From a virus, in IMG/VR virus record IMGVR_UViG_3300045988_163070: DNA of 64,000 nt. One strand, written 5' to 3'. Shown here piece by piece: positions 5,648 through 56,242 of this stretch. The position numbers and the translations under genes were made by a program. The notes beneath the pieces were generated by a model. The model was not told where the DNA came from. It saw only the letters and a list, made by a program, of their open reading frames with translations, and ran no database searches. Each line of letters opens with the position of its first letter. Within the stretch, counting starts at the first letter, position 1.

Positions 5648-5649
5648 CT

Positions 5650-6351
5650 ATGGCTAAGTCTAATGTTTGGATGTCAGTTTCCGACCTTATGACGGGTCTT
5701 ATGGTTATATTTCTTTTTATAGCCATTGCTTACATTAGTCGTGTAAAACAGAATCAAACTGTATTAACTGACTATATTGAAACCAAGAATGAACTTCATA
5801 ACAAGCTTGTTAATGAGTTTGCAGGAGATACCTTACAATGGCAAATGGCCATTGGCAAAGATCTTTCTATGAAATTCAAAGAGCCTACTGTTCTTTTCGC
5901 CTCAGGATCAGCTGATCTTACTCCTCGATTCTGTCAAATCCTCAACAATTTCTTACCAAGATACTTCAACATCTTACTTAATGATAGTTTGCGTACAAAC
6001 ATTCGAGAAATTCGTATCGAAGGACATACAGATAATGTGCCAATGCCTAGTTATGATACAGACTCCTATATTGCCAATGTCATTTTATCTCAAAAGCGTT
6101 CACTTAGTGTTCTAAAGTATTTTCGTAAAATGGAAGTTTTCAAAAAATACACATCAGAACAACAACGACTTCTTGAGTTCTGGTTTACAGCTAATGGGCT
6201 TTCGTATGGAAAATCACTTGACAACAATGGTGATTACACAATTGTAACGGGAAATGATATTGATAAAAATAAATCCAGACGTGTTGAATTTCGAATAGTG
6301 ACGAGTGGTGATGAGATACTTGAAAATTTCGTAAATAAGAATAAAAACTAA
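5650..6351 (+). CDS. zorB: ZorB-like MotB/OmpA-family stator protein
   Basis: 233 aa. N-terminal TM with conserved Asp (WMSVSDLMTGLMVIFLFIA). C-terminal OmpA-like motifs (IRIEGHTDN, LSQKRS, SRRVEFRIV). Confidence 0.8.
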   Translation: MAKSNVWMSVSDLMTGLMVIFLFIAIAYISRVKQNQTVLTDYIETKNELHNKLVNEFAGDTLQWQMAIGKDLSMKFKEPTVLFASGSADLTPRFCQILNNFLPRYFNILLNDSLRTNIREIRIEGHTDNVPMPSYDTDSYIANVILSQKRSLSVLKYFRKMEVFKKYTSEQQRLLEFWFTANGLSYGKSLDNNGDYTIVTGNDIDKNKSRRVEFRIVTSGDEILENFVNKNKN

Positions 6352-6356
6352 GCTCT

Positions 6357-7193
6357 ATGGACAGTGAGGATCCTATTTATCAGTTTGACCATTTCAAATC
6401 TTTACTTTCCACTATGGGGATTGAAGTTGGAGAAGCCTCAGCTTGGTCTCCTGTCGGTACAATCGAAGTTCTTTCTGAAAATATCGGTAAGAAAATAAAA
6501 TTTGAAAGTAATGGCATATTTTACATTGATGACAATGGAAGTGAACATCAAGGTTTTATGTATAAAAGAGATTTTTATTTTCACGATTATGGAGAGAGAA
6601 TGCCCAAATTCCATATAAGATACTGCCATACACTTGAGTGTTTTGGAAAAGAAGCTTATCGCTTTGCTAATAATGAACCTATCAAAGTTTTTGCACGAGA
6701 TAAAGCAATACGTCATGAAGTAGAAGTCTCCGGATTGCATCTATGTACCTATTGTTCTCAAATACTTGCAAATGAACTTGAGAATGAAATTCATAATTCT
6801 ACAGATTTCGTAGAATTCTTAAAACAAGCAGAAGGAATCGATCCCAATGATAACAGAGATACTGAAATTGATATTTTCGGGTATACCAAAAATTGGGAAC
6901 AAATAAGTCAAGCATACAGATCCATTCACCAATTTACATGTGAACGTTGTGGTCTCCAGATCACTGAACCTTTTGATCAACATTTTATGCACACACACCA
7001 TAAAAATGGAAACAAAACAGATAATAGAGAAGCTAACCTTGAATGCCTTTGCGTTCGCTGCCATTCAGAAGTGGATGATCGACATAAAAAACGTCTTTGC
7101 ACAGGAGCAAATAGGATTATACTAGAAGATTTCAACGAGAAATACCCTTCCTTTAATAAAGATAGTTTAGAAGATAATGATTTAGCTTTCTAA
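6357..7193 (+). CDS. zorE: ZorE-like HNH endonuclease
   Basis: 278 aa. C-terminal HNH with CxxC pairs (FTCERCG ... HTHHKNGNKTDNREANLECLCVRCH). Located 5 nt downstream of zorB on the same strand. Confidence 0.7.
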   Translation: MDSEDPIYQFDHFKSLLSTMGIEVGEASAWSPVGTIEVLSENIGKKIKFESNGIFYIDDNGSEHQGFMYKRDFYFHDYGERMPKFHIRYCHTLECFGKEAYRFANNEPIKVFARDKAIRHEVEVSGLHLCTYCSQILANELENEIHNSTDFVEFLKQAEGIDPNDNRDTEIDIFGYTKNWEQISQAYRSIHQFTCERCGLQITEPFDQHFMHTHHKNGNKTDNREANLECLCVRCHSEVDDRHKKRLCTGANRIILEDFNEKYPSFNKDSLEDNDLAF

Positions 7194-11528: not shown

Positions 11529-12281
11529 TTAGAATTTGAATTTGCAGGATATATTATACTGTACAAGCTGCTTTGTCTTGTCCTTTCCGTTGTTAGTAGC
11601 ACTCTTCAGGAGAATGCTATCACCAAAACTTTTCTTGATGAAAAGAATGGATCTACGCTCCTCTTCTTGGTTCCTGATTGAGGAAAGGCCACCGGCATTT
11701 ATGAAAGTATTCTTTTGCTCAAAGTTATACCGTAAATCAGTCAATATCCGGCGCTCTTTATACTTCATGTAACAGGATATCCAAAAATCTTCTTTTAAAC
11801 GGATTTCCTCATTCCACCAGGTATTTTTATTGTAAATTACTCCATAACTGCAACCGGTTATCATTTTTGAGAGAGAAAGAAAAGCTGATTCGTCATACAT
11901 CACAGGTGATATCCGGGAAGTGAAACCAAAGAGATGAACATCCATCATACTGGCCATCTCAAATAACGACTGAATGATATTAGTGATTCTATCCTTATCT
12001 TTCACACGCCCCGGTTCTCCCTTTTCGGCACAGATAGCTTTACAGGCGTGCACATCATCGTCTATCATGAAGAGTTCACCAAAATATTTCGCCATCCAGT
12101 TACGTTTAGGTATAAGGCCGATTATATCGTCTGGGTGCGTTACGATCTCACATTCCGGATTAAACTGCTGATATAAGTCTGCCTGACTCTCAGCAACACA
12201 AATAATAGGATCATTCACCAATTTTTTAGCAAACACCCGGTCATGGCGCTTATGACTTGGTATTACTATTTTGCAGGGCAT
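11529..12281 (-). CDS. possible GT-A-fold glycosyltransferase-like protein
   Basis: 250 aa. N-terminal KIVIPSHKRHDR and FMIDDDV (DxD-like) read like a GT-A core. Its start overlaps the upstream ParB-like gene by 32 nt. Confidence 0.3.
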   Translation of the reverse strand: MPCKIVIPSHKRHDRVFAKKLVNDPIICVAESQADLYQQFNPECEIVTHPDDIIGLIPKRNWMAKYFGELFMIDDDVHACKAICAEKGEPGRVKDKDRITNIIQSLFEMASMMDVHLFGFTSRISPVMYDESAFLSLSKMITGCSYGVIYNKNTWWNEEIRLKEDFWISCYMKYKERRILTDLRYNFEQKNTFINAGGLSSIRNQEEERRSILFIKKSFGDSILLKSATNNGKDKTKQLVQYNISCKFKF

Positions 12282-12906
12282 GACGGACGTCTTTTATATC
12301 AACAACATTACTCTTACTTATTTTCCCAGTTTTATAGGACTTCATGTGCTGCATATCCAGTCTTTCACGAAGCCAGTTACTATCAACTTCATTACTTGAG
12401 GTAATGATGAATAGCTCATGCTTTTCATCATATTTGGGAATAAGAGGATAGATAGCTGTATCATCTGTGATCGTATCAAACCGCTCTTTAAATTCGTCCT
12501 CTTTCTTTTCAGGATTAAACTCGATCCCCCATTCCTGAAGTTCAGACTTATTCCACTCATTTTCCATAGCGTCCATATCATTCTCACCAAAATTGACATT
12601 ATCCTTTGTAGCATACTCTCTAAGCTTCTTCACTGGAGTATCAGATGGCAAAACCTTACATGGAAGTTCTTTGTATCCAAGTTCCTTACAAGCACGTAAA
12701 CGGAGATTGCCACAAACAACAATATACCGGCCATCATTATAGGGAAATATTATAAGCTCTCTAAGTTCAAGCATTTCAGGCGAATCCTGAATACTTTTCT
12801 TCATCGCTTCAAAGCGATAATCACGGAAAAAGCGCGGATTTTTCGGTAATCCCATGAGCTGCCCCTTATTAAAATCAAGTAGGCATACTTGAATTGTCTC
12901 TGTCAT
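12250..12906 (-). CDS. ParB/Srx-fold nuclease-like protein
   Basis: ParB N-terminal domain pattern LRELIIFPYNDGRYIVVCGNLRLRACKELGY. The ATG at 12906 is preferred over the TTG at 12912 used in the track. Confidence 0.7.
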   Translation of the reverse strand: MTETIQVCLLDFNKGQLMGLPKNPRFFRDYRFEAMKKSIQDSPEMLELRELIIFPYNDGRYIVVCGNLRLRACKELGYKELPCKVLPSDTPVKKLREYATKDNVNFGENDMDAMENEWNKSELQEWGIEFNPEKKEDEFKERFDTITDDTAIYPLIPKYDEKHELFIITSSNEVDSNWLRERLDMQHMKSYKTGKISKSNVVDIKDVRHALQNSNTKS

Positions 12907-13009
12907 AACCAACTATATTAAAATCAACAACACTAACAGTCAGCAGGCAGACTCGAATTATCTCTGCCATAACCAACTATATTAAAATCAACAACACTAA
13001 CAGTCAGCA
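12891..13009. repeat. tandem direct repeat, 2 x 55 bp (period 64 bp, 2 mismatches)
   Basis: GAATT(G/A)TCTCTG(T/C)CATAACCAACTATATTAAAATCAACAACACTAACAGTCAGCA at 12891-12945 and 12955-13009. Copy 1 contains the start codon of the ParB-like gene. Confidence 0.9.
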
Positions 13010-14987: not shown

Positions 14988-16703
14988 TCAGGCTTCCTCT
15001 GTATTATCGTTATCAAGATCCTTTAATCGATCATTGAGTTTCTTTTGCTTTTTCTCCAATGAAGCATTTAGTTTTTTTCCTAATGCAAAGTACTCATCAG
15101 GATATTGTTCGTGGAACAGAATATTTTGGCATTTTTGCATATACGGATAAAACATCACATCATTAGCAGAAAGACTATTTGCGATGAAAGCCCGATACCA
15201 TTGATCCCGATCAGCTTTATTATTTTTGACGTATTCGACAAAATCTGATTTTTTATCGTACCTGCTTAATTGCAAGGTTTTCAGGTAGCCATCATCGCAA
15301 CTACGCAGAACCATCACATCAAAAACTGTCTGTTCATCAATAGAAAGCTCCTTTTTACGCTGAAAGTATGGCTTTTCTTGCGCCCATTTGCGCATTTCCT
15401 CAGCGCTTTTCTCAATGACAATTTCTTTATTCCTCTTTAACTGAGCTTTTATTTTCTCACGTTCTATTTCTTTAACATCTGCAACTGCTGTAGTTCCAGA
15501 AGCAATATCTTTTCTAACATAGTAGAAATTAACTTTAAATTCCGGATAATAATAGCCAAAGAATGAGATACATCGATAAACATCGCCATCATCAATCATT
15601 TTCAAAATACGTTCATCATCTTCCGAATACCAGCACTGCCCTTTAAAAACTTCATCCGGATTGACCACTGTAAACCCAAGTTGTTTAACAGCGTCTAAAG
15701 TACTTTCATACTGCTTCTTTTTTTCATCACTCCAATAAGAATCAACTTTTGCAACAATTACTGTTTTTCCGAATGAAAGAGGTTCACCTACCTTTACAAG
15801 ATTTTCACTTTCAAGCAGAATCTTCCGAACTACATACGCAATCCGCTTTTTATTAAAACAAGTAGCATTAATACACCGGGCGTCTTTATTGTTCATCTCA
15901 TAGAATAGACAACCATGATTACAGGTATTAGATTCACATTGAGAACATGGTTTAAATTCTCCATTTTCCCAATTATCAGCCTCCTCTTCAATCCAATCGG
16001 CTTTTTTAAGTTCCATAAAAGAATTACTCACATAATCCCGAATCATAGCGGTCGTGCATTGTTCATCTTCTTCCTCATGAAACTCTTTTTGAGTTTCTTC
16101 GTCAAGTTTTGAAAGAATCATTGCACCGGATAATGGGATATCTCCATTTCTTACACGTTCTTTCAGTTCCGGAATAAGACTATTTAGCTTTATACGATCA
16201 AAGACAAAACGAGCAGACTTTCCAAATTTAAGGGCAATATCCTCATAACTACGCCCTCTCTCTGACAGCTGCGCAAAAGCAAAAGCTTCTTCGATGGGAT
16301 CGACATCTTTTCTTTGAAGATTCTCAGTAATCATTGCATCGAAAGCCTCGTCATCTGTCATCTCTCTGACAATGCAAGAAATTGTTTGAAACCTTTCTGA
16401 CTTTTTACGATGTGCCTTGATTTTAGCAGTATTCTCTTCATCTTCCTTTGCTTTCAAGAGTGATACAGCACGGAAGCGGCGCTCACCGCAAACAATTTCA
16501 TACGAACAGGGGATTGTTGTGACATCTCCTGTTTCCAAGTCAGTAAAGTCCTCGGATTTAGCTACCCTAACGGTTATAGGCTGCAATAAGCCTTGTTTCT
16601 CAATGTTATTTGCAAGCTCTTTCAGAGCTGCTTCATCAAAAGTCTTTCTCGGATTCAAAGGAGAAGGACTGATAAGGTCAATTCTAATGTTTTGTACTTC
16701 CAT
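14988..16703 (-). CDS. ParB N-terminal domain protein (large, 571 aa)
   Basis: IDLISPSPLNPRKTFDEAALKELANNIEKQGLLQPITVR ... VCGERRFRA is the classic ParB/Spo0J N-terminal box. Confidence 0.8.
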   Translation of the reverse strand: MEVQNIRIDLISPSPLNPRKTFDEAALKELANNIEKQGLLQPITVRVAKSEDFTDLETGDVTTIPCSYEIVCGERRFRAVSLLKAKEDEENTAKIKAHRKKSERFQTISCIVREMTDDEAFDAMITENLQRKDVDPIEEAFAFAQLSERGRSYEDIALKFGKSARFVFDRIKLNSLIPELKERVRNGDIPLSGAMILSKLDEETQKEFHEEEDEQCTTAMIRDYVSNSFMELKKADWIEEEADNWENGEFKPCSQCESNTCNHGCLFYEMNNKDARCINATCFNKKRIAYVVRKILLESENLVKVGEPLSFGKTVIVAKVDSYWSDEKKKQYESTLDAVKQLGFTVVNPDEVFKGQCWYSEDDERILKMIDDGDVYRCISFFGYYYPEFKVNFYYVRKDIASGTTAVADVKEIEREKIKAQLKRNKEIVIEKSAEEMRKWAQEKPYFQRKKELSIDEQTVFDVMVLRSCDDGYLKTLQLSRYDKKSDFVEYVKNNKADRDQWYRAFIANSLSANDVMFYPYMQKCQNILFHEQYPDEYFALGKKLNASLEKKQKKLNDRLKDLDNDNTEEA

Positions 16704-24105: not shown

Positions 24106-24196
24106 ATTGGTTTGACTTTTAGTTTATTACATCAGTAAAGTTATCGTTAAATGACGAAGTTAGCAAACGGAAACTTCGCCATTTTAGCGCCATTTT
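24106..24196 (-). promoter_or_regulatory. conserved ~91-bp intergenic repeat, copy B
   Basis: See copy A at 16715. It fills the whole gap between the stop at 24196 and the annealase start at 24092. Confidence 0.5.
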
Positions 24197-24645
24197 TATA
24201 ATGGGTAATATGGAGTTCTTGGTTCTCTCCCATTACTCAAGTCAAGTGTGCGATAGTCGTTCAGAAGCTGCTTACTGAAATTAATTACACGTAAGCATGT
24301 GATTTCTGAAAACATCCCAATATGGGTATAATCAGAAGGTAGATCAAGCATTCTTGAAAGCCATGCGTAAGCTTCAGTTTTTTTCATGTAACCAAGCTCC
24401 CAAATCTTATCGAAATACTCGTGAGCTTGATGCTTCATTTTACGAAGTGGCCTTCGTGCAACTCTTCCTAATGCTCTATTAGTACCCTTGTGAACTCCTA
24501 CATATGCATCACATCCAGAACACAAATAGATCATTCCGTATGACCTTCGATAAACAACAGAACTATCGACAAACTCTGTTGGATTACCGCAATATGGACA
24601 TATCTTCCCAGCGATAATTAGTTTTTGTCTTTCGGTTAATTCCAT
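24196..24645 (-). CDS. zinc-ribbon protein (DUF3268-like)
   Basis: 149 aa. CPYCGNP ... CSGCDAYVGVHKGT ... LRKMKHQAHEYFD matches my memory of DUF3268. Confidence 0.45.
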   Translation of the reverse strand: MELTERQKLIIAGKICPYCGNPTEFVDSSVVYRRSYGMIYLCSGCDAYVGVHKGTNRALGRVARRPLRKMKHQAHEYFDKIWELGYMKKTEAYAWLSRMLDLPSDYTHIGMFSEITCLRVINFSKQLLNDYRTLDLSNGREPRTPYYPL

Positions 24646-24661
24646 AATAATACATTAATTG

Positions 24662-24744
24662 TGGACGGTAGAGGAATCGAACCCCTCCCACTCGTTTTGA
24701 ATTGGTTGCGCAACACGAAGCTCTAACCGATAAGCTAACCGTCC
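24662..24744 (-). tRNA. tRNA-like gene with a 17-nt anticodon loop (identity undetermined)
   Basis: Perfect 7-bp acceptor GGACGGT/ACCGTCC. D-arm GCTT-ATCGGTTA-GAGC. T-arm AGGGG-TTCGATT-CCTCT. 5-nt variable loop. Anticodon stem TCGTG/AACGA encloses TTGCGCAACCAATTCAA. Confidence 0.6.
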
Positions 24745-24837
24745 GAGGAAAGATATACTATCCTCACGAACCGTACACCTTGAATTAAAACACAAATACA
24801 AAACTACATGATACTATTAATCACCTTCATGGGTTTG

Positions 24838-25000
24838 CGAAGTAGAAAGGAGTCGAACCTCTAAACTTTGCAACAGGATTTTTCGTTTCAGTGTCTGATT
24901 GTGCATATGTGGGGATTTAATAGTTTGATTTTCCCACTCGTGATGCTATTCGTGCATTGTCACCACTGAAACTAAGCGTCTACCATTCCGCCACTACTTC
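24838..25000 (-). ncRNA. 163-nt tRNA-like RNA: class-II (Leu-like) tRNA body with a ~70-nt insert capping an extended anticodon helix
   Basis: Acceptor GAAGTAG/CTACTTC. D-arm GCG-GAATGGTAGA-CGC. T-arm AGAGG-TTCGACT-CCTTT. 12-position helix TTAGTTTCAGTG/CACTGAAACGAA with one A.G mismatch. Confidence 0.5.
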
Positions 25001-25086
25001 ATTTCGTTGCCAGCCGCTGCTGGCAACTTTGATTGATTTGATTAAAATATTAACCTTTGATTGATTTCACCCTCACGGGCTACTTG

Positions 25087-25218
25087 TGCCAAGAGACGGA
25101 TTCGAACCGCCGACCTCTGCTTGTGGTGCTCTCCCGTTGAGCTAAGAGTATTTCTTGAGAGACTCGAACTCCCAACCTTCCACCACACACAGCGCTCTAT
25201 CCACTGAGCTATCCAAGC
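25087..25218 (-). ncRNA. 132-nt double tRNA-like RNA (outer tRNA frame plus nested permuted T-arm/D-arm module)
   Basis: Outer: GCTTGGA...TCTTGGC acceptor (4 WC, 2 GU, 1 mismatch), D-arm GCTC-AGTGGATA-GAGC, T-arm GGCGG-TTCGAAT-CCGTC. An 11-12 bp helix replaces the anticodon arm. Inner: GGGAG-TTCGAGT-CTCTC and GCTC-AACGGGA-GAGC. Confidence 0.5.
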
Positions 25219-25284
25219 AAATGCCCGGATTTTTATTCCGGGCTAATCTAATCACAAACGTTAAAATCATCCTCACGGACTTTC

Positions 25285-25338
25285 GTGCAAGTCCCGGCAT
25301 CGAACCGAGAAGAAAGCCACTTTCCAGAAAACTAACAC
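25285..25338 (-). ncRNA. possible 54-nt mini tRNA-like element (acceptor-like helix plus T-arm)
   Basis: GTGTTAGT/ACTTGCAC helix (one T.T, one G.U). Hairpin GAAAG-TGG-CTTTC. T-arm CTCGG-TTCGATG-CCGGG. This is the weakest member of the cluster. Confidence 0.25.
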
Positions 25339-25407
25339 CTAAACAAAAACTATATGGCAAACGACCTATTATAAAACTGGAAAGCCCTTATCTTGCATCC
25401 TTGAATA

Positions 25408-29652: not shown

Positions 29653-29727
29653 AAGTGATGGGCGGACTCGAACCGCCGACCTCATGCATATTAAGACATG
29701 CGCTCTAACCAACTGAGCTACACCACC
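29653..29727 (-). tRNA. tRNA with Ile-like body and an 8-nt anticodon loop CUUAAUAU
   Basis: GGTGGTG TA GCTC AGTTGGTTA GAGC G CATGT CTTAATAT GCATG AGGTC GGCGG TTCGAGT CCGCC CATCACT T. All arms are in register except for one extra loop nucleotide. Confidence 0.7.
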
Positions 29728-33134: not shown

Positions 33135-34313
33135 ATGGCTACATTTTCATTGGTAATTGTCCCAGCTAAAAAACTATCAGACGGGACACATAAAATAAGA
33201 ATCAGAGTAGCACATAACTCTGATACAAGATTCATCACAACAGAAATTGTCGTTCGTGAAAACGAATTTAAGAACGGAAAGATAGTCCAACGCCCAGACA
33301 AAGATTTCCTCAACATAAAATTGCAGGAATGGTATAACACGTACTTCAAACGCTATATAGAATTAGAGCATGCAGAATCGTTAACTTGCGCCCAATTAGT
33401 TAAGATGATAACAAACCCTATTAATGGCGAACGTAATCGCAAATTTGAGGATATCGTTGAAGAATTCCTCTCACAGATCGATGAGGATGATAGAGAAAAA
33501 ACGCATAAACTTTATAAATTGGCCGCTAAACATTTTATTCGGTTTACTGGTCCAAGTACACTCATGGAACACATAACACCAATCCGGATTAATAACTATC
33601 TAACGCATTTAAGGAAGAGCAAACTCTCTCCTACCTCAATCAAAATCTATATTACACTATTGAAAGTGATAATAAACTATGCCATCAAGATGAGATACGT
33701 AGAATATAAGGTAGATCCATTTGTCACAGCTTCCATTCCTTCAGCTAAGAAAAGAGACACACATATCACAGTTGAACAACTAAAGATTATTAGAGATATG
33801 GTACCTAATCAATATAACGTATCAGTAGTTCGCGACATTTTCATGCTTACTTATTATTTAGCCGGCATGAACTTAGTTGATATGCTGGCTTACGACTTCC
33901 GGACCGACATTGTAGATTACATCAGAATCAAGACAAGGAATACTAAAGATGGTGACCGGTTGACTTCGTTTGCGATTCCTGATGAAGCAAAACCTCTCAT
34001 CAAGAAATATATGAATAAGAATACCGGAAAGCTCGTATTTGGAAAGTATAAAACCTATGTATCCTGTTATAATACACTCACCCGGAAAATGAAAGTTCTG
34101 AAAACAGTAGCAGGCGTTACTCACAACTTAACATTATATTCAGCTCGCAAATCATTCGTTCAACATGGATACGACTTGGGAATTCCTCTTAGCACATTAG
34201 AATACTGTATCGGTCAGTCAATGAAAGAAGATCGTCCAATCTTCAATTATGTATCAATCATGAAAAAGCATGCTGATAAAGCGATACGCGAGATACTTGA
34301 TAATCTGAAATAA
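33135..34313 (+). CDS. int: tyrosine recombinase / phage integrase
   Basis: 392 aa. N-terminus MATFSLVIVPAKKLSDGTHKIRIRV and a SAM-like domain typical of Bacteroidota-type integrases. C-terminal catalytic region LYSARKSFVQHG...YV. Confidence 0.8.
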   Translation: MATFSLVIVPAKKLSDGTHKIRIRVAHNSDTRFITTEIVVRENEFKNGKIVQRPDKDFLNIKLQEWYNTYFKRYIELEHAESLTCAQLVKMITNPINGERNRKFEDIVEEFLSQIDEDDREKTHKLYKLAAKHFIRFTGPSTLMEHITPIRINNYLTHLRKSKLSPTSIKIYITLLKVIINYAIKMRYVEYKVDPFVTASIPSAKKRDTHITVEQLKIIRDMVPNQYNVSVVRDIFMLTYYLAGMNLVDMLAYDFRTDIVDYIRIKTRNTKDGDRLTSFAIPDEAKPLIKKYMNKNTGKLVFGKYKTYVSCYNTLTRKMKVLKTVAGVTHNLTLYSARKSFVQHGYDLGIPLSTLEYCIGQSMKEDRPIFNYVSIMKKHADKAIREILDNLK

Positions 34314-37541: not shown

Positions 37542-38024
37542 TTATTGATATAAACTTAGATCAACAGCATCTTTCTTTTTCCAACCAGCAGCTAATGTGC
37601 GCTGAACAAAAACCATTTCCTTAGTATAAAAGTCCGTCAGATTTTCCAAGGTATTAAATTCATAGTAGACAGGTTCATCATCTGTTCCAAATTTAAATCT
37701 TACTGGTAAAGAGGTACCGTCTGTCTGCACTGCAAGATCATAGGCTGATTTATAATTGAACTGGTTTTCCTGTGATAACCATACAGGTATGCCATTATAG
37801 GTAAATCCGGACATGATCTCGTTATTTATCTCCTGATTATACCAGTTAATAACCATAACCTTTACCTCCTCACTGGTAGGCTTATAAGAGAACTCCTCTT
37901 CCATATAGGAAGCATTTCCCTCTTGCTCACTTGGCTGTACATCCCAACGTACACGCCACTTATTTTTCACCGGATTTACACACTCAAAGAGCGATACACC
38001 GGAACTTCCTTCTACTCGTTTCAT
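37542..38024 (-). CDS. hypothetical protein (DUF4376-like), translationally coupled to the RT
   Basis: 160 aa. Its ATG overlaps the RT stop (TAATG). GIPVWLSQENQFNYKSAYDLA resembles fibre-associated DUF4376, from memory only. Confidence 0.5.
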   Translation of the reverse strand: MKRVEGSSGVSLFECVNPVKNKWRVRWDVQPSEQEGNASYMEEEFSYKPTSEEVKVMVINWYNQEINNEIMSGFTYNGIPVWLSQENQFNYKSAYDLAVQTDGTSLPVRFKFGTDDEPVYYEFNTLENLTDFYTKEMVFVQRTLAAGWKKKDAVDLSLYQ

Positions 38025-39340
38025 TAGCTAAATACATATTTTGTTCGACCTTTACCGAACGTCTCCGTCTTAATCGTTGTTTCAAACGGAAAACCATCCG
38101 GCATACTTGAAATTTGTTGGAGGATATTTTTCATTTCCTCCGAATTGGTGAAGAACTTCTTCATTTCACCATTTTGCTCAATTGAGACAATACAACGGTC
38201 TTCTCCCTGCTCTGTTTTAATACCCATTTCATAATCTTTCACTATGATAGGGAGATTTACCAATTCTCTTATGGAAACAACTGTGCCTGGAAAACGCTTC
38301 TTCCCGTCTTCCGGCTTGTAAGTGACGTTTAAATCTTTGAAACTTTTCATTTTTATGCCTGTTAATTTATAAAATAGATTCTTGCAATCGGCATGCTTTA
38401 CCAAGCCATAAAAAGAGGCAATGAGTTCTTTACGACGTCTACGGCTTTTCACTTTATGAAGCCTACGAGCAAAGTTCTGTTTGTTCCTTTTGCGTACACG
38501 GGTATGATCCGGATAAATAACGAAGCCTAAGAAATCAATACCTTGCTTGGTTGGAAATACACGTTCAATCTTTTTAATCACAAGATTTATCTTAGCCACC
38601 TGCAGACACACAATATTACGCATCTTCCAAAGAACTTTTTTGCTCCCATTCAAAACACGCCCGTCGTCACAATACCGGAAATAGTGCTTCACGCCTTCCC
38701 GGTCCTTCAGGACATGGTCGATAAAAATGGATAACAGAAGATTACCAAGCCCCTGCGAACTTCTTAATCCTATGCTTATTCCCTTTTGCATCACGTCCAC
38801 GAATCCGGAAAGTAGCTGAATGAGCTTATTATCCTTAAACACCTTATTAACACAGTATTTCATAAAATCATGATCAACATTCTCATAAAATTTACGAATA
38901 TCAAAAGTGTAACAGAACTCTGTTCCTTGTGCATCATTCCCTATCGAATCACGTACATAACATAATAGATCGTGTGTACCACGTCCTTTTATAGATGCAG
39001 ATGTAGTCCGGATAAAACGACCTCGCAAATGTTCATCTACAACTTTCATAATTGCATGCACAGCAACCCGTTCTTTCAAAGAAAAAATTTGGATGCGACG
39101 TAGTTTACCACCTTCAAAGACCTCCTTTTCAAAAAAATTACTAACTTTAAAACTGCCATTACGAATCCTTTCTGTCAATTCGTCAATGACTTCTTTTTTA
39201 TGCGCAATAAGAGTTCTCCCTGAACGGCTGCGTTTACGTTTCCGACCTCGCAACACTGTCCAGAAAGACTCTTCCATATTTTCAGGAGTTATTATCTCCT
39301 CAATGATATTGCCTTCTCTACGCATAATTTTTGCCTTCAA
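38024..39340 (-). CDS. DGR-type reverse transcriptase
   Basis: 438 aa. RT motifs FDIRKFYENVDH, SIGLRSSQGLGN (the IGxxxSQ hallmark of DGR RTs), RYCDDGRV (YxDD), GIDFLGF. TR lies 206 nt upstream. Confidence 0.88.
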   Translation of the reverse strand: MKAKIMRREGNIIEEIITPENMEESFWTVLRGRKRKRSRSGRTLIAHKKEVIDELTERIRNGSFKVSNFFEKEVFEGGKLRRIQIFSLKERVAVHAIMKVVDEHLRGRFIRTTSASIKGRGTHDLLCYVRDSIGNDAQGTEFCYTFDIRKFYENVDHDFMKYCVNKVFKDNKLIQLLSGFVDVMQKGISIGLRSSQGLGNLLLSIFIDHVLKDREGVKHYFRYCDDGRVLNGSKKVLWKMRNIVCLQVAKINLVIKKIERVFPTKQGIDFLGFVIYPDHTRVRKRNKQNFARRLHKVKSRRRRKELIASFYGLVKHADCKNLFYKLTGIKMKSFKDLNVTYKPEDGKKRFPGTVVSIRELVNLPIIVKDYEMGIKTEQGEDRCIVSIEQNGEMKKFFTNSEEMKNILQQISSMPDGFPFETTIKTETFGKGRTKYVFS

Positions 39341-39545
39341 CTTTCTGGGCCCAACTTCTTCGAGAATCCCAATAAAGGGAAACCTACCAAACTCTACCCA
39401 ACGATGTATGTTTCAGTTTTCCAGTCTTGCGACTGCTGTTACTGAGGCTCATCCCCCTCGGCTCAATGATGAGTAACTCGTACTCCTTATCGTACGCCGA
39501 TTAATTTCTTCAGGCACTAACGTCCAAATTCGTTTAAATTGTTTC

Positions 39546-39656
39546 CGAGCCGGGAACCGTTGTTCGCAGACGCATTCGATGAATCGTTACCGCAATTCGC
39601 ATACGAGACACCGCCGTTCGGGTTCGCGTTGTTGTTCGACCGAAAGACCACACGAG
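39546..39656 (-). repeat. DGR template repeat (TR)
   Basis: 111 bp matching 39898-40008 at 105/111 positions. Read in gene sense it is AAC-codon-rich. Confidence 0.88.
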
Positions 39657-39829
39657 TCTATGGGGGAATCCACCTACGGGGGTACAAAATTAACAATTTA
39701 TTCATCTTGACAAAAGATTAAGTAAGTTATATTTTCGCCGGGCTTCGCCCGGATTTGTGCCGTTCGGGAAGAGCAGCACAAATCCGAACATGGCTAAACG
39801 TTTTCCGATTTAGTCGCTTCGCTCCCGCT

Positions 39830-42800
39830 TTACGATTCCGATTTCAACGATTTGTACGCTTCAACGCTCTCCGCGACCTCGATTTGACCGCGGAAGGCGA
39901 GCCGGGAACCGTAGTTCGCAGACGCATTCGATGAATCGTAACCGCAATTCGGATACGAGACACCGCCGGGCGGGTTCGCGTTGCTGTTCGACCGAAAGAC
40001 CACACGAGAAGCTGCTGCGCTCGGTTGGAATTCATCACAATAATAGGTTGTACTACTACCAGCCTGTGAAAAAGCAGCAATCACATCACAATATTTTTGA
40101 TGAACCATACCAGTTGCAAAACCACCGGTTGTACCGGAACGAACTTTACGTACCGTACCGTCAGGCATCTCAATATTTAACTTATACTGCTCTTGTGCAT
40201 TAGTATTAGGTAAACCAACTTTATCCATCCATTCATATTTGTCACCATACCAACTTTCATAACCCATACAGTTACTTGAAGGAATACGAGTATGAACTAT
40301 TCTACCATCGGCATCCTTTGAGATATACCAAGAATATTCAGTTTTATGCACACCATCTGAATCATAGCTTACAGTATCCTGCATACCGATTACGGCAGTA
40401 GTTCCGACTATCCGGTTATTTGTATTTTGACCATAACCGCATTGATCTTGTGCATCACGACGACCATATGCTGCATAGAACAAGTTAGCTACATCTTTGT
40501 GCATCTCCCAGTCCACAAGTTGCAAATTACGTTGTTGTGCATAATAGTGAAAATCGGATTGAGACATACTACCAACACTTGCAGAAGTATTAAAAGCAGA
40601 ATAAAGAGAATTACCAATAGAGATTGCTTCACCGACACCTGTCAGACAAGGCAGGTGTTCAACCCAATCCGGCTCCATATCCTCAATCTTGTCACTGTTG
40701 GATAATACAACAAGGTCAAATTCTGCGTTATTGAAGATCGTGAAATAAAGGAAAGCAGCTCTTTCCGGAACGTCTGCAATAAGATACATTCCTTCAGCAA
40801 ACTTATTGTTAAGACTCGGAACGGTCAAATCCTTTATAACATTACCGGATGCGTCTACGAAGATACTGCCAATCAAGCCGGTTCCTAACGTGGTCGGGAA
40901 ACGGACACGCTTATGCTTGGAAACATCGACACCGCAAACACTATAATTCGTGTCTGAAGAATAGCTGTCCGTCAAGGTAGCACGACCAATCAGAATCTTA
41001 GATTTCTCCTTATAAAGCCCGGATTCCCGGATATTGGAAAGATAAACTTTATCACATACCGGTATATCCGGAATTTCGGTATTGGAACTGTAACAGGTGT
41101 ACTTCTTGTTGTTAAGGTAGTCATTAATTCCTTTATACCAATAGTGAGGTTCATACATCCAAAGATCACCCTCCGTACTATCCAATTTGGCAGGAGTAGC
41201 ACCGGATATTTTCTCTGAATCGGCATAATAATTAGAGTTCTCATCGTGTAGATTGCAAATCACCATTTTACCTTTCTCAGTCTGCTTACCTAAAACACGA
41301 TGACGTTTAGCCAGGATCTTAGTAATATGTCCGTTGGCTACATAGCTGTTACCGTATTTATAGCCGGTCAGATTGTCGAGGTTGCTGATATTAGCATCAT
41401 CGGCAACAGTGTCATCAAACTCAATCATCGTATATTTAGGCTGAATGATGGTCAGCTCCGGGAAATGAGCAACGGCTGCTTCATATTCTTCATCAGTCAT
41501 GGAACGGGTAAGACGATAGGTTCCCACCAGGCGACAGGAAGATACATTACCGCCATTCTCATCAACACCTCCCATTTCCATAAGGTTTCTAATCAGCGTA
41601 CCGTCTCCTTCCATATCAATACCAGTAATACGAAGGTATCTGACAGCCGGACACGCTGTGAGCAGTCTTTGCCAGTCGATCAGTGCGCAACTATCGACAA
41701 CAAGGCGATTAGTATTAACCGTACCCTCTAATGTCAGATTGTCGTTAGATAATTTGTTCAAGTATCGTAATTCAAGCGTCTGAAGAGTAGCAGGAAGAAC
41801 AGCAACGGACAAGGGAGAACCAGGTGCAAAAGATACTCCCGTTAATGCAGATTTACCAGCACGGAAAGTCTCAAGTTTGGAATTTGAAGATAAATCCATA
41901 GAAGTAAAGTTTTCACTTTGCAACCCGGTAAGGTTCAACTCACGCAGATTCTTACACTTGTCAACTAAAAGTGCGTTCATGGTCTTTTGCGTAGCCGAAC
42001 AACTGATATTCAAAACTCGCAATGCTACGCAATTGCTTAGATTTAGAGTACCGACAATAGCATGGCTAACATTAGTCAGATCAAGACCTAACATACGGGA
42101 TGCACCGTAGAAGTATTGAGGATCATTGACTATCAAATCCGTGTCGAGCGTCAGTTCGACAATACTGCCGGCATCTTCAGCGAGCACACCACTTTGTTTC
42201 GGTTCGCCGGACGTGTACCCATAGCCGAAGTAATAACGTTCGCTGGCGGTTATCTTAACCTTACGCTTATCAGTAGAGAACTTATAACCAAAATAGATAG
42301 GGAATGAATCCTGTCGGTATGTACCTGCAAGATATTGGCTATCCAAAAGAGCAAAACGGTTTTGGATCGTGAATGTACGGTGAGCGTAACGACTACCTTG
42401 AAGGGCGTACAGGTAGTCATAGTATTTTGTACCCTCCGAAGTCGTAACACCCTCTGTTAAAGGCTTGATATACTTGTATTCTCCGTCCTTATTATAAATC
42501 CTCTCGCACCAATTACCCATCAGTTGGTTATTGAAGATATCAAGTACATACTCGGTGCTCATATTACTACGGATATTCCCGGCAACTTCCTGCAATTTCT
42601 CCGGCCAAGAGCGGACAAGTTTCCAAAGTATGGAGTCGTGACCGGCCATTGCATAGGAGCCAATAGAATCATCAAAGGTTTCCCATGTCATAGTATAGTC
42701 ATACTTCAGTACGGAGTCATTACGTCCGCCTAAAATCGTATCCATGTCATAAGGAAGAATATACCAGTGAACACCGTCCCAAGTGCAGAACATCATGTTC

Positions 42801-45800
42801 TTTGCCCGGCTGTCAACAGCCATCAAATAGTCAGTGATTATGTACCAACCGAACAAGCTGTTTACATTAAAGTAATCGGCACATTCTGCACGGAACCGGG
42901 CGGGGTCATTTTTTACCGAATTAATCCATGTCCAAAGGCGGGTTACAGCGTCTTTATCCTCTTGGTCGGCATCTTCCCATGTCTTATCCGGCTTAAAACG
43001 GAATTCCAAACCGTCAGCGAAGTTTTCAGCAGTTATGTTGGAAGTACCGAAGAGGCACAACGGATGAGAATTGTTCAAGAACTCAAGGCAGATACATTTG
43101 TTACGGTCGCCATTCAAAGCGGCTAAATCATTGAATCCGGCAATACCTTCAAAACCGTAGACATTGTGAGAATCGCTCTTTTCGTTATTGAAATTGTACT
43201 TACCCAAATAGGTATTTACACCGGTATTATCATTATCGTAGAACAAGTCCATCGGAAAACCATCAACACCGATACGAACACTGCCGTCTATTTCCTGTGG
43301 GGGTGTCAGCCAGCCACATTTCTTCCATGTGTCATTGACCAGTCTCACACCACCAGTATTGTGCGTTGATGATGAGTCGGAGAAATCAGCCTTCAAACAG
43401 AAAATACCCACACGTTTGGCGCCGGGTTTGAATGAATACATCAAGTCCGGAACATCGACACCATTCACTTCCAAAGTCGTTCCATATTTATCGAAACGTT
43501 CAAAGTAGATACGGTAGTTCTTTCGCGGATAGGTAGTAGACGATGTACCCTGTATCCGAAGTCCTGCATTACGAAGTACAAAATCATACTCCTTGCCATA
43601 TGCAGAATAGAAATACACGTCAACAGGCACTTCAAACTTTTTGTTGTTCGTTGCATTAACAAGTTCGACATCACCAACAAAGCGCATGACAGATTTACCT
43701 TGTACACGAAGCTTTTCTATATCCACATCCGAGCCGTCGTCATTCATAACATCGTTTTTCTGGAATAGAACAACCATTTCCTCTGATGTCGGACGGTCTA
43801 CCATGTAGTTGGTCAGCTCTTCATCATCAGTCAGACCACGCCGGTAGATACGCAAATTGCGCAACTCGATATCGGCTGCATCGGAAGATACAGTAATATT
43901 TACCGGAGCTTCCTGCTTCATACTTTCAGTCTGTGAGTACTGTTTCGCACCACAACGGATACCATTTACGTACAATTCTATCAAACGAGTACCGGACTTC
44001 TTGCCGATAACGAAAGCTATTTTCAGATTCAGATCGGAAGCAAAAAGTGTATTGACAGAACTTCCTCCGGAAGCGGTTATTTTCGCTTCCTGTGTTGTCA
44101 TCTGGAATCCTATTCCACCGGACATACACGAAAGAATGACACCGTTACGATCAGTTACATTCGAACACTTCAATTCAAATTCATACGTAGCACCGTTCGA
44201 TACGGCATCATTGGCAAGGGGTTGTTTAAGAATCTCTATTGTAGCTCCATTAGTTAACTGCAAAGAGTCACCAGTCCAACCATTACTATTCCAATCAAAC
44301 CCGGTAAACTTGGTTGTTACCTCGCCATCAGTCCAAACTGCCGGATTTTCTTCGGTGTTACTACGACCGGCAGCCGAAAGTTTTAAATCAAGGTCTGCTT
44401 GTACTTCCTCGATATCAATAGAGGATTTTGCAACGTGGACTAAGAAATCATATTCAGTGTTGCCGCAAGAGAACCGCATTGCATACTCTCCCTGCTCGGT
44501 GAACCGGTTTGTATATACCTGAACGGTACGCGGCACACTTACTGTCTGTGTTTTGGTGCCATTGTTGTACACGGACATTTCAGCAGGGGTTTTGCTCGGA
44601 TCGTAAACAACAAAATCGAATTGCAGTTTCTCATATTGACCGACTTCAAGGCGTGGTGTCAAATGATCATCCGTAAAGATGCGGCCGTCCGGGAAGCGAT
44701 GCATCATGCCGATACTGGGAGCAGAAGAACCCTCTTTGAATATATCCAAGTAGATACTTTCAGAGCGAACGGTAAGATCGGCAGAAGCTTCCATTTCAGC
44801 AACCATCTGCACGGTATGCCGACCAGGTAAAAGGTCAGACATGGAAATACTGAAGCTGCTGTTCGTTTGCCCGGATTTAGTAATAGTCTTGGAGTCTTTC
44901 TGAACACCATCAACATACAACATGACAACTTTGTTGCCTGTTCCCGAAATGGTGAACGGAATGGATGCAGTTGCACCGGCTGCATAGCCGCCAACAGGAG
45001 AAGCAATGTTATAAGTAGAACTCAAAGATAACGTAATAACTTTGACGGACGTGTATGCCTGTTTAGTCTGCTTCTTGCCTTCCGGATCGGTAGTTGTTGC
45101 CTTTACATAGATATCCGTTGTTCCCAAAAGCAAATACTTACTCAAATCAAGGGTATATGTACCCTTAGATACATCGTTAATAGTCTCTGTGTACACAGTT
45201 TGAGCACCTCGAAGCATCTGTATGGTAAGCGTAGCTTTCTGCCCAGTAGATTCGCCCTTGTCATCTCCGGAACTATATTGGTGATCGTAGAAATAGGTAA
45301 GATGAGAAGAACCACCCTCTTTGATAATGCTGTTATCTACCGAAGCATTGAGGACAATCTTTGTTGCAGTACCGGTTTCTCCGCCGCCACCGCCTGTACC
45401 GCCTTGAAATTCCGTACTGGCTATTTCTGCACCGGACTTGTTTTTCAAACTTAGCTTAACAGTATTATTATCCTCGTCAACCTCGGATTCGAGTGTGAAA
45501 ACAGTATTGGCTTCAATCTCATTAAATTTAGCAGTTACAGGAGCGTTCTGAATGGCATTTGTTGAGTTGGCATCCAAACTTTCATCTGTTTGAGGAATTT
45601 CGACATTGAAAGATACACCACCACTTTCATCCGGAGTATGCTTTTCACCGTTGAAAGTAATTTCTTTCACAGCTCCTGCACCACCGTATTCATTCCAAGC
45701 AGCCGGCTGATCGAAAGCTGTTATGTCGTTTGATTCAAAACGATAATCTTTCCATTTCCCAGCAGACTCCTCGAAAGTAATAATCATGCCGGGCTTCTCT

Positions 45801-55663: not shown

Positions 55664-56242
55664 TTACGTCCTTTTCTTCTTCATGCTTATCTCTACATCT
55701 GCCTGATGGACGATGTTTGCATAAACAGCAGCATTTATGTTCCGGACATCAATATTCATTTTAAAAAAAGTCATAAGAAAAGCTATTTCAGCATCAAAAG
55801 AAGAACGTATCTGTTCCGGAGTAGCTTTTTCTTTCTTCTCATCAGAACGCATATCATCGCTTCTCTTTTGCTCAAATAAAGCAGATCGCAACAATTCTTC
55901 AACTTTAGACTTAACTTGTTCATCAGACATGGATTTCGTATCATATGATAACAAAGCCAAAGTCTCCCGGACATCTTCATAAGCATCAATAGCAATCAGA
56001 GAAATACAAACTTTAAAAAGCAAAACACGTGCCCTCTCTTTTATCATATCCTCACGATCAACTAACACAGATTTCAATCCGGACGGATTAGTTATCTTCT
56101 TGTACTCTATTATCAAATCAGATGAACGTTTCTTTAATTCCATCTCATTAATATCCTCATCTGGTGAAAGTAATACGGAGCAATCACCACATGAAAGCTC
56201 TATAAAATCATATAGAGATAATTGGTTCAATCTTTCAATCAT
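55664..56242 (-). CDS. hypothetical protein downstream of tape measure
   Basis: 192-aa ORF. Its start overlaps the TMP stop by 4 nt. Confidence 0.5.
   Translation of the reverse strand: MIERLNQLSLYDFIELSCGDCSVLLSPDEDINEMELKKRSSDLIIEYKKITNPSGLKSVLVDREDMIKERARVLLFKVCISLIAIDAYEDVRETLALLSYDTKSMSDEQVKSKVEELLRSALFEQKRSDDMRSDEKKEKATPEQIRSSFDAEIAFLMTFFKMNIDVRNINAAVYANIVHQADVEISMKKKRT

Follow-up and report, generated by a model that had tools for sequence, protein, structure and literature searches.

Within the 64,000-nt viral DNA of IMG/VR record IMGVR_UViG_3300045988_163070 (the whole of which is referred to below as the window), we describe a 132-nt minus-strand RNA that consists of a transfer RNA (tRNA) frame in which the anticodon helix leads into a further tRNA elbow, circularly permuted as in YrlA, an arrangement supported by comparative evidence. 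Comparison of its homologues shows the architecture to be kept by compensatory evolution and to recur in independent phage lineages; it likewise shows one and the same inner unit (the payload) to be modular, i.e., seated in differing outer tRNA frames (the carriers). As for function, on balance we favour a non-decoding, tRNA-scaffolded tRNA mimic that would serve as a binding platform or decoy.

Fold of the double-headed RNA

Read on the minus strand, the RNA begins with a G at 25218 and ends with a discriminator A at 25087, CCA not being encoded. Its 5' half runs GCUUGGA UA GCUC-AGUGGAUA-GAGC G CUGUG-UGUGGUG GAAGGUU GGGAG-UUCGAGU-CUCUC AAGA-AAUAC-UCUU A and continues into the 3' half, GCUC-AACGGGA-GAGC ACCACA-A-GCAG AGGUC GGCGG-UUCGAAU-CCGUC UCUUGGC A (Table 1). 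The outer acceptor stem (GCUUGGA/UCUUGGC) contains four Watson-Crick pairs, two G.U pairs and one U.U mismatch, and together with the outer D-arm, variable loop and T-arm it lies in exact tRNA register (U8, A14, G18 G19, G15-C48 and the T-loop). Where an anticodon stem-loop would be expected there is a long helix of 12 layers, CUGU(G)UGUGGU/ACCACA(A)GCAG, interrupted at the 31:39 position by a G.A mismatch; the tip of this helix bears a T-arm, a stub hairpin and a D-arm, which together make up a permuted module at 25128-25173. A sequence-only reading had listed these parts of two elbows, the order of arms at the helix tip, and the long helix with its G.A mismatch. Every listed part could be read in register on the minus strand of 25087-25218, the tip order proved to be the permuted order of YrlA, and the mismatch is kept across homologues.

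No register of the 132-nt RNA yields, on direct reading, a 7-nt loop with U33 and an anticodon; judged from its sequence, the RNA cannot read codons, as it is without an anticodon loop. This bears on the explanation that the gene encodes an intron-containing tRNA, in which an insert of ~60-70 nt would be spliced out to leave a normal decoding tRNA. Such a gene would suit the Rfam alignment, which treats the RNA as a tRNA whose anticodon arm holds an insert, and would also suit the annotation, in one LoVEphage record, of a homologue of the neighbouring element at 24838-25000 as a two-piece "tRNA-His / tRNA-Undet". However, no contiguous removal yields a 7-nt loop with U33, the 5-bp stem being flanked by UGUGGUG... 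and ...CACCACA; the helix is continuous, without a bulge-helix-bulge motif; Rfam scans of the region gave no intron-family match, including at E values up to 1; and a conserved tRNA elbow as the insert would be left unexplained. We find splicing barely credible and, with the canonical loop present in no register, rule it out from the sequence itself.

The Rfam tRNA model (RF00005) takes in the whole 132 nt at 39.0 bits (cut-off 29) over model positions 1-71, 70 nt being treated as an insertion within the anticodon arm, and the YrlA model (RF02553) matches the inner part weakly (22.8 bits, E = 0.2, cut-off 69); besides tRNA, no Rfam 15 family reached its threshold on the window RNA. ARAGORN made no tRNA call at this RNA or at 12 related copies (13 loci). 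Two ordinary tRNAs, the outcome that the sequence-only reading had named as contrary to its proposal, were thus called neither by ARAGORN nor by the Rfam scan.

The energetics of the single sequence weigh against the fold. The window RNA has an unremarkable folding z-score (-0.39), and the double cloverleaf lies at -39.6 kcal/mol compared to a minimum free energy (MFE) of -42.0 kcal/mol. In the energy model, pair probabilities are at least 0.83 for the outer arms and the long helix; those of the inner T, stub and D hairpins are 0.32, 0.02 and 0.04, because a 10-bp alternative helix, joining positions 42-51 with 70-79, competes, and for the window sequence alone the model favours another fold of the inner 50 nt. 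With single-sequence energetics unremarkable, the structural case therefore rests on comparison.

Relatives, compensatory change and exchangeable carriers

Relatives were gathered with sequence patterns of increasing specificity. A scan with the inner T-arm 21-mer was too generic, with mostly ordinary tRNAs in 120 loci, among which only L002, L006, L022, L062 and L108 were relevant; a scan for a T-loop followed at short distance by a D-arm returned mostly classic YrlA-like RNAs and tightly packed tRNAs. Enrichment for the class came only from a third pattern with an added close downstream T-loop (inner T-loop, 10-19 nt, D-arm, and a second T-loop too near for an ordinary tRNA), which gave at least 118 loci in IMG/VR. 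A covariance model, R1, trained on 10 examples, recognized at least 83 full-length relatives at 125-145 bits when 99 of the at least 118 viral loci were scanned. The identical pattern, applied to one genome per prokaryotic species, yielded a main-family copy in a Bacteroides sp. metagenome-assembled genome (L407, 135 bits) and a divergent copy in Kitasatospora (L413, 84 bits). Overall, the class would span phages or prophages of both Bacteroidota and Actinomycetota, as well as low-GC contigs of a Clostridia-like kind. BLAST comparisons of the window region and of the L225 and L293 RNAs with cultured phages returned ordinary tRNA fragments only, and no cultured carrier was identified thereby.

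Pair counts were taken from alignment A3, which holds 38 distinct sequences and was fitted to the model, a fit that favours the structure and is to be borne in mind with the following counts: standard pairs fill 94.3% of cells, compared to 79.7 ± 0.5% after shuffling; 27 of 40 pairs are altered on both sides (16.3 ± 2.0 shuffled); and the covariation score is 0.457, compared to 0.160 shuffled and 0.07-0.10 with partners slid by 1-3 columns. None of 500 shuffles reached the observed pairing and covariation values. Double-sided change is found in all seven pairs of the outer acceptor (98.1% of cells pairing) and in eight of the nine pairs of the long helix, such that the compensatory change across homologues on which the sequence-only reading had staked this helix does exist. 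Covariation extends to the outer anticodon-stem pairs that adjoin the payload (18 sequences with U-A, 14 with C-G), and likewise to four of five pairs in the inner T-stem (100% of cells pairing), three of four in the stub (85.5%) and three of five in the outer T-stem (100%); both D-stems are invariant and 100% paired. At the G.A mismatch of the long helix, which occupies alignment columns 35 and 121, 34 of the 38 sequences keep a non-Watson-Crick combination. As for tertiary contacts, all 38 sequences can form the inner 15'-48' pair, 33 of them as A-U and 5 as G-C, and the outer 15-48 pair is G-C in 30, A-U in 3 and something else in 5. U8, A14, G18 G19, U54, U55, C56 and A58 are invariant in both heads across 10 sequences. 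Given these invariant core nucleotides and the covarying 15-48 pairs, both heads thus have the requisites of the tRNA L-shaped core. A further point to be set against the inner fold is that the inner head is nearly constant within the main family, and support for its fold comes mainly from a few independent lineages.

In those lineages the architecture is built from unrelated sequence: L152 (115 bits with R1); L225, L172 and L302 (96, 85 and 74 bits; all high in GC and actinophage-like); L337 (67 bits); and L293/L339 (65 and 63 bits; 38% GC). The independent rebuilds are L152, L337, L293/L339 and the group of L225, L172, L413 and L302. ARAGORN calls none of these sequence-unrelated versions; plain MFE folding arrives at the double cloverleaf in L337 and comes close to it in L293. 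In L225, L172 and L413, the double-headed RNA lies inside an ordinary tRNA array, a placement that would suit co-processing with tRNAs. The stub hairpin has 3-5 bp in every lineage and is often capped by UUCG. Altogether, the structure looks well supported, and the RNA looks like a real class.

Other combinations of tRNA-like modules were also encountered. Concatenated repeats of T-arm, stub and D-arm lie beside ordinary tRNAs in the viral contigs L140 (2802-3021), L142 (1956-2181), L126 (2566-2705), L286 (668-781) and L287 (7271-7399); these permuted elbows may be multi-headed relatives of the double-headed RNA. On bacterial chromosomes, further arrangements occur in Pseudomonas (L345, L367, L380, L434), Acidovorax/Delftia (L379, L384, L389, L412, L416, L422) and Flavobacterium (L347, L361, L411, L437), some being tandem units with short tetraloop anticodon arms and others running T-arm, stub, D-arm, T-arm; they are probably related to Y RNAs.

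Frame and payload evolve differently. Over 30 distinct main-family sequences, mean pairwise identity is 0.505 (minimum 0) in the outer acceptor, 0.853 in the outer D-arm, 0.846 in the outer variable loop and T-arm, and 0.854 in the outer anticodon-stem half; on the payload side it is 0.994 in the inner helix, 0.943 in the inner variable loop and T-arm, 0.79 in the stub hairpin and 0.933 in the inner D-arm. At least eight distinct acceptor stems bear one and the same payload. The genes in L002 and L270 have an upstream block, GTCGGCAAATCGTGGTATTTGCTTTA, and their 3' half in common with the window gene at 29653-29727 (alignment A4), which is a carrier frame free of payload; its anticodon loop is CUUAAUAU, ARAGORN reports it as "tRNA-??? 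(taat)", and the gene might encode either a decoder of four-base or suppressor type or one more frame that does not decode. The acceptor of the array element at 24662-24744 (GGACGGU/ACCGUCC) is also that of the double-headed RNA in L259. Different payloads are borne by other tRNA frames of these phages. From a variable outer frame around a near-invariant inner unit, it follows that the outer tRNA behaves like an exchangeable carrier constrained only in shape; the central helix with the inner elbow behaves, as far as these alignments tell, as the sequence-constrained unit.

A near-invariant payload in differing carriers, one carrier known both with and without it, and the HNH endonuclease genes common in these loci would also suit an event at the DNA level, in which a small mobile insertion with inverted repeats (the "long helix") disables tRNA genes at the anticodon and the RNA fold is incidental. 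Yet the carriers keep compensatory change after their supposed disruption (seven of seven acceptor pairs), as do the outer anticodon-stem pairs adjoining the payload; the payload retains all canonical elbow nucleotides, with 15'-48' covarying; unrelated sequences in at least four other lineages give the same architecture; and a payload of ~60 nt is too short to encode anything. We consider a purely DNA-level origin of these patterns very unlikely.

The same regional contrast bears on the idea that the outer head is aminoacylated and that this charged head is the active part, whether in the manner of transfer-messenger RNA (tmRNA) or as a non-ribosomal donor, with the inner elbow capping the arm against anticodon nucleases. 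The acceptor/T-arm/D-arm core is indeed intact and upheld by compensatory change, and several members, including L274, L261, L249 and L245, combine G3.U70 with A73, which under the established tRNA identity rules are the determinants for alanyl-tRNA synthetase (AlaRS). But G3.U70 is present in only some members, the window copy having U3.G70 and L229 C3-G70; the discriminator may be A, U, C or G; and with the discriminator and pairs 1-72 and 3-70 varying freely, no single identity is conserved. Moreover, evolution is fastest in the outer frame and slowest in the payload, which is the opposite of what charging predicts, and neither ARAGORN nor Rfam calls a tmRNA at the window RNA. Charging as the purpose of the molecule is distinctly unlikely.

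A candidate tRNA-mimicking platform and its Y-RNA connections

Under the platform or decoy reading, the outer acceptor, T-arm and D-arm would allow host RNase P, RNase Z and the CCA-adding enzyme to excise the RNA from its array, and the outer frame would lend it tRNA-like stability, by analogy with engineered tRNA scaffolds. The functional unit would be the near-invariant central helix together with the closed inner elbow, a YrlA-type tRNA mimic. The payload may then serve as a bivalent platform or decoy for proteins or RNAs that recognize the tRNA elbow or body, candidate partners being enzymes that process or modify tRNAs, a protein of the kind that partners Y RNAs, or a host defence factor that targets tRNAs early in infection. 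More tentatively, it is possible that double-headed tRNAs constitute an unrecognized and widespread phage RNA class within a larger tRNA-scaffolded family, acting as a bivalent mimic that tethers or sequesters tRNA-recognizing host factors; such a mimic might, for example, neutralize a tRNA-targeting anti-phage defence or redirect tRNA-processing or decay enzymes during infection.

The molecule would likely have arisen from a tandem tRNA duplicate that took up a domain-swapped fold, after which the junction acceptor would have been reduced to the stub, while of the two anticodon loops only a lone G.A mismatch or a small internal loop would be left. In L293, L172, L302 and L413, identity between both heads of the same RNA is 0.80-0.90, compared to 0.73 ± 0.07 for a cross-lineage control, which lends modest support to a tandem-duplication origin.

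Salmonella YrlA is modified by TruB and DusA, and RNase P cuts only YrlA with a 7-bp acceptor, leaving the shorter-stem Salmonella YrlA uncut (PMC4201824); by this rule the 3-5 bp stub of the double-headed RNA should stay closed. For YrlA of M. smegmatis, cleavage by RNase P and the addition of CCA at the internal acceptor have been reported (PMC4201824), a precedent for the alternative that the phage RNA is a precursor which RNase P and RNase Z would split at the inner stub into two base-paired halves or two RNAs, and the inner head does have the permuted order that such processing needs. The stub, however, is this short in every lineage and often closed by a stable UUCG loop, whereas cleavage is credited to the 7-bp acceptor that uncut Salmonella YrlA does not have (PMC4201824). 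We regard such a precursor as highly improbable; among the functions suggested in the sequence-only reading, namely a decoy, a Y-RNA-like scaffold and a processing intermediate, the last is the least likely one, the inner stub having only 3-5 bp.

Several results count against the platform or decoy reading. The helix of YrlA that binds Ro60 carries a conserved GNCGAAN0-1G on its 5' strand (PMC4201824), and this motif is absent from GCGCUGUGUGUGGUGGAAGG of the window RNA. No TROVE/Ro60 or DUF2828 domain was found by Pfam in 30 open reading frames (ORFs) of the window (among them all 26 ORFs of at least 200 amino acids except the antisense ORFs 12250-12912 and 43857-44522), nor by tblastn. Neighbourhood comparison brought up no protein gene common to all lineages, the conserved neighbours in the main family being small early proteins. 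The near-invariance of the payload could stem in part from recent recombinational spread and not from sequence selection. Finally, each functional step of the reading is one that we infer.

A protein partner is suggested, if anywhere, by the L293/L339 lineage, the only one that lies near a DUF2828 gene: in both loci the double-headed RNA is encoded 1.7 kb downstream of the gene for a 501-amino-acid protein with DUF2828 and DUF7788. Homologues of this protein adjoin YrlA-like RNAs in other phage contigs, and at least 479 phage genes with DUF2828 and DUF7788 were confirmed in IMG/VR. Of 80 further DUF2828 loci that were taken (L463-L542), about 25 carry beside the gene one to four tRNA-framed RNAs of 112-136 nt, in which the anticodon arm is swapped for a hairpin followed by the motif A(C/U)(A/U)GCAA (examples in Table 1). 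Rfam labels these only "tRNA", and the motif also occurs in the YrlA-like RNAs beside DUF2828 genes. From these features they resemble a Y-RNA-like class on tRNA scaffolds that has not been described and is paired with a possible analogue of Ro60, and the payload looks, in at least one case, like the protein-binding module of a Y-RNA-like system. A tRNA body with a payload in place of the anticodon stem-loop would thus be a general phage design.

As a separate observation, three repeated stand-alone hairpins with CAAACAGCAAA, e.g., UUGGUGCAAACAGCAAA...GCACCAA, lie upstream of the DUF2828 gene in L293 (6365-7145, minus strand); these may be minimal RNAs of Y-like type that serve the protein encoded next to them.

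One may then ask whether the double-headed RNA is itself a true Y RNA, one that would bind a ring protein of the Ro60 type (Rsr/TROVE from the host, or a phage protein of the DUF2828 type) and tether this protein to an exoribonuclease, with the outer tRNA replacing the terminal stem. The YrlA topology of the inner head and its weak YrlA match would agree with this, as would a central helix that is the most conserved part, as in Y RNAs, and the DUF2828/DUF7788 gene of L293 and L339, relatives of which adjoin YrlA-like and tRNA-framed ACAGCAA RNAs. But the window and the main-family loci yielded no TROVE or DUF2828 gene, the YrlA score falls far under the gathering cut-off, and the helix contains neither GNCGAAN0-1G nor ACAGCAA; even in L293, the three ACAGCAA hairpins directly upstream of the DUF2828 gene are the better partner candidates. 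The resemblance of DUF2828 to Ro60 is likewise one that we infer, and sequence and profile searches of the PDB with DUF2828 gave nothing significant. Membership among the true Y RNAs is, on this evidence, unlikely.

The platform or decoy reading places the RNA among other cases of tRNA mimicry, which recurs in RNA biology (Y RNAs, tmRNA, viral tRNA-like structures). Like an ordinary tRNA (RF00005), the double-headed RNA passes the Rfam cut-off and in some phages lies within tRNA arrays; unlike one, it is without an anticodon loop, U33 and conserved identity elements, and its insert is a second tRNA core. Engineered tRNA scaffold chimeras, reportedly described by Ponchon and Dardel in 2007, carry an RNA of interest in place of the anticodon stem-loop. 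They resemble the phage RNA in keeping the tRNA body and grafting a payload on the anticodon stem, but the phage RNA is natural and conserved, its payload is itself a tRNA elbow, and its carrier would have a role in processing and stability. The tRNA-like domain of tmRNA shares the acceptor and T-arm module, a long helix in place of the anticodon arm, and the fact of not decoding in the usual sense; tmRNA differs by its G3.U70, mRNA-like frame, pseudoknots and want of a true D-stem, none of which hold for the window RNA. Permuted tRNA genes of Cyanidioschyzon merolae, such algal tRNAs being a further parallel for the precursor alternative, have a full 7-bp acceptor and a circular intermediate and give normal decoding tRNAs. 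Their order (T-arm, acceptor 3' strand, linker, acceptor 5' strand, D-arm) is that of the inner head, in which, by contrast, a capped stub of 3-5 bp closes the unit and the permuted unit is nested within another tRNA. The T4 species 1 and 2 RNAs (rnaC, rnaD) are likewise small, stable RNAs of a phage tRNA cluster with tRNA-like 3' parts, but are without a second elbow; as members of the class they were rejected, R1 with filters off giving a partial match of 15.8 bits to rnaC and none to rnaD.

The nearest natural relative in form is YrlA (RF02553; Chen et al. 2014, PMC4201824), which has the same closed, permuted mimic of T-arm, short acceptor-like hairpin and D-arm on an anticodon-stem-like helix, canonical T-loop and D-loop nucleotides, and representatives in phages. 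The helix of YrlA, however, is closed off by the 5' and 3' termini of the RNA itself and bears the Ro60-binding motif, and its gene lies beside rsr, whereas the window helix enters a complete second tRNA that owns the termini, the motif is absent, and no Ro60-type gene was found in the window. The sequence-only reading was aware of no described RNA of this kind, and this stands insofar as Rfam 15 holds none beyond tRNA and full-text literature searches, with most subscription journals outside their scope, found no description of a two-elbow tRNA-like RNA. We know of no natural RNA with two complete tRNA elbows joined via their anticodon stems.

Abundance in human-gut-type viral contigs, and retention or re-invention in distant lineages, argue for a general function. 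If the scaffold-plus-payload arrangement holds true, phages would be turning the body of a tRNA into a modular cassette for expressing and stabilizing small RNAs; such use would account for many phage genes called "tRNA-Undet" or "tRNA with intron", and would add a new layer of phage-host conflict over tRNA-binding proteins. As ARAGORN misses these genes and Rfam mislabels them as tRNA, annotation pipelines need a dedicated covariance model. The class also provides a defined set of RNAs for pull-downs and structural work.

The minus-strand array and the rest of the window

Table 1. Parts of the double-headed RNA, its neighbours and related tRNA-framed RNAs (positions in the window unless a locus is named)
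Feature	Position	Strand	Basis or remark
Whole double-headed tRNA-like RNA, 132 nt	25087-25218	minus	direct reading; Rfam tRNA; covariance model R1, 145 bits
Outer acceptor, 5' strand GCUUGGA	25212-25218	minus	partner is 25088-25094
Outer D-arm GCUC-AGUGGAUA-GAGC, with U8 A9 before it and G18 G19 inside	25194-25209	minus	invariant U8, A9, GCUC, A14, G18, A21, GAGC
Long helix, 5' strand CUGUG UGUGGUG (outer and inner anticodon-stem halves)	25181-25192	minus	pair probability at least 0.87
Inner variable-loop-like linker GAAGGUU	25174-25180	minus	last U is the 48' partner of A15'
Inner T-arm GGGAG-UUCGAGU-CUCUC	25157-25173	minus	U54, U55, C56, A58 invariant
Inner acceptor-like stub hairpin AAGA-AAUAC-UCUU, closing the inner head	25144-25156	minus	3-4 bp in the window copy
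Inner D-arm GCUC-AACGGGA-GAGC, with U8' A9' (25144-25143) before it	25128-25142	minus	G18' G19' invariant
Long helix, 3' strand ACCACA A GCAG	25117-25127	minus	A 25121 opposite G 25188 (G.A mismatch)
Outer variable loop AGGUC, 5 nt	25112-25116	minus	C48 pairs with G15; outer 15-48 pair counts
Outer T-arm GGCGG-UUCGAAU-CCGUC	25095-25111	minus	stem 100% paired across homologues
Outer acceptor, 3' strand UCUUGGC	25088-25094	minus	direct reading
Array neighbour, 163 nt; 7-bp acceptor GAAGUAG/CUACUUC, Leu-type D-arm, T-arm	24838-25000	minus	direct reading
Array neighbour, 83-nt tRNA-like, 27-nt aberrant anticodon arm	24662-24744	minus	Rfam tRNA 39.9 bits; ARAGORN "tRNA-???"
Array neighbour, weaker case; T-arm CUCGG-UUCGAUG-CCGGG, 5-bp acceptor GCAAG/CUUGC	25286-25396	minus	reading and folding
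GC-rich hairpin GCCCGGA-AUAAAAA-UCCGGGC, then AUUU	25223-25243	minus	terminator scan; 4 nt upstream of the RNA 5' end
Payload-free carrier frame with 8-nt anticodon loop	29653-29727	minus	Rfam tRNA 59.2 bits
tRNA-framed motif RNAs, example loci	L478 6644-7311; L474 4324-4873; L468 3635-4888; L494 3314-4880; also L203 4515-4615

The window is that of a temperate Bacteroidota-type phage or prophage, with genes for a terminase (563-2593), ParB (14988-16703), an integrase (33135-34313) and a tail protein (56239-60147); no close cultured relative of the phage was found. The double-headed RNA lies in an early/recombination region, with an Erf-like annealing protein, a RecE-like exonuclease, an SNF2 helicase and a DUF3268 protein encoded nearby, and is one of four consecutive minus-strand tRNA-framed RNAs with aberrant anticodon arms (24662-25396). 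In the 163-nt neighbour, the anticodon arm is lengthened by a helix, GUUUCAGUG/CACUGAAAC, with an insert of ~70 nt; this element has 77-78% identity to DNA of LoVEphage, BI-TP1 and PV4-TP1, and the 83-nt neighbour matches Bacteroides phage BS-TP2. The element at 25286-25396, which was picked up by none of the tools, has a long helix, CUUUCCAG/CUGGAAAG, around ~55 nt. Related contigs bear further types, e.g., RNAs of 114-120 nt with an AU-rich insert. Among the conserved main-family neighbours, a 104-amino-acid protein may, at a guess from its sequence, be an excisionase or a helix-turn-helix-type DNA binder.

Two other explanations for sequences of this region were rejected. An attP site or integration scar is ruled out for the double-headed element, which is complete, covarying and set in an array 8 kb from the integrase gene. 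A DUF3268 RNA motif, considered for the DUF3268 gene (24196-24645) that follows the array, is ruled out as well; that motif is a k-junction RNA in the literature, and Rfam gave no match.

Small hairpins punctuate the array. The spacers after the first, second and third elements hold UCC-GUGA-GGA, CCC-GUGA-GGG and CC-AUGA-AGG, and a fourth, UUC-GUGA-GGA, lies ~30 nt upstream of the last element, the GUGA (GNRA-type) tetraloop being present in three of the four. The GC-rich hairpin just upstream of the double-headed RNA is conserved in L229 and L062 and is a putative terminator-like or leader structure.

Elsewhere in the window, a complete type II Zorya system lies beside the terminase gene on the plus strand (4058-7193), comprising ZorA2 (E = 8e-245), ZorB2 (1.5e-82) and the HNH nuclease ZorE2 (1.4e-123); if that stretch belongs to the prophage, the system is prophage-borne. 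On the minus strand, a reverse transcriptase gene (38024-39340) abuts an RT-3 RNA (39346-39502, 130 bits), upstream of which a 2521-amino-acid protein with CotH and lectin-like domains is encoded (39830-47395); the layout of 38024-47395 suggests a diversity-generating retroelement. Also on the minus strand, a gene for a TET-associated glycosyltransferase (TAGT; 11529-12281, E = 7.7e-14) is a hint that the DNA of this phage may carry hypermodified bases.

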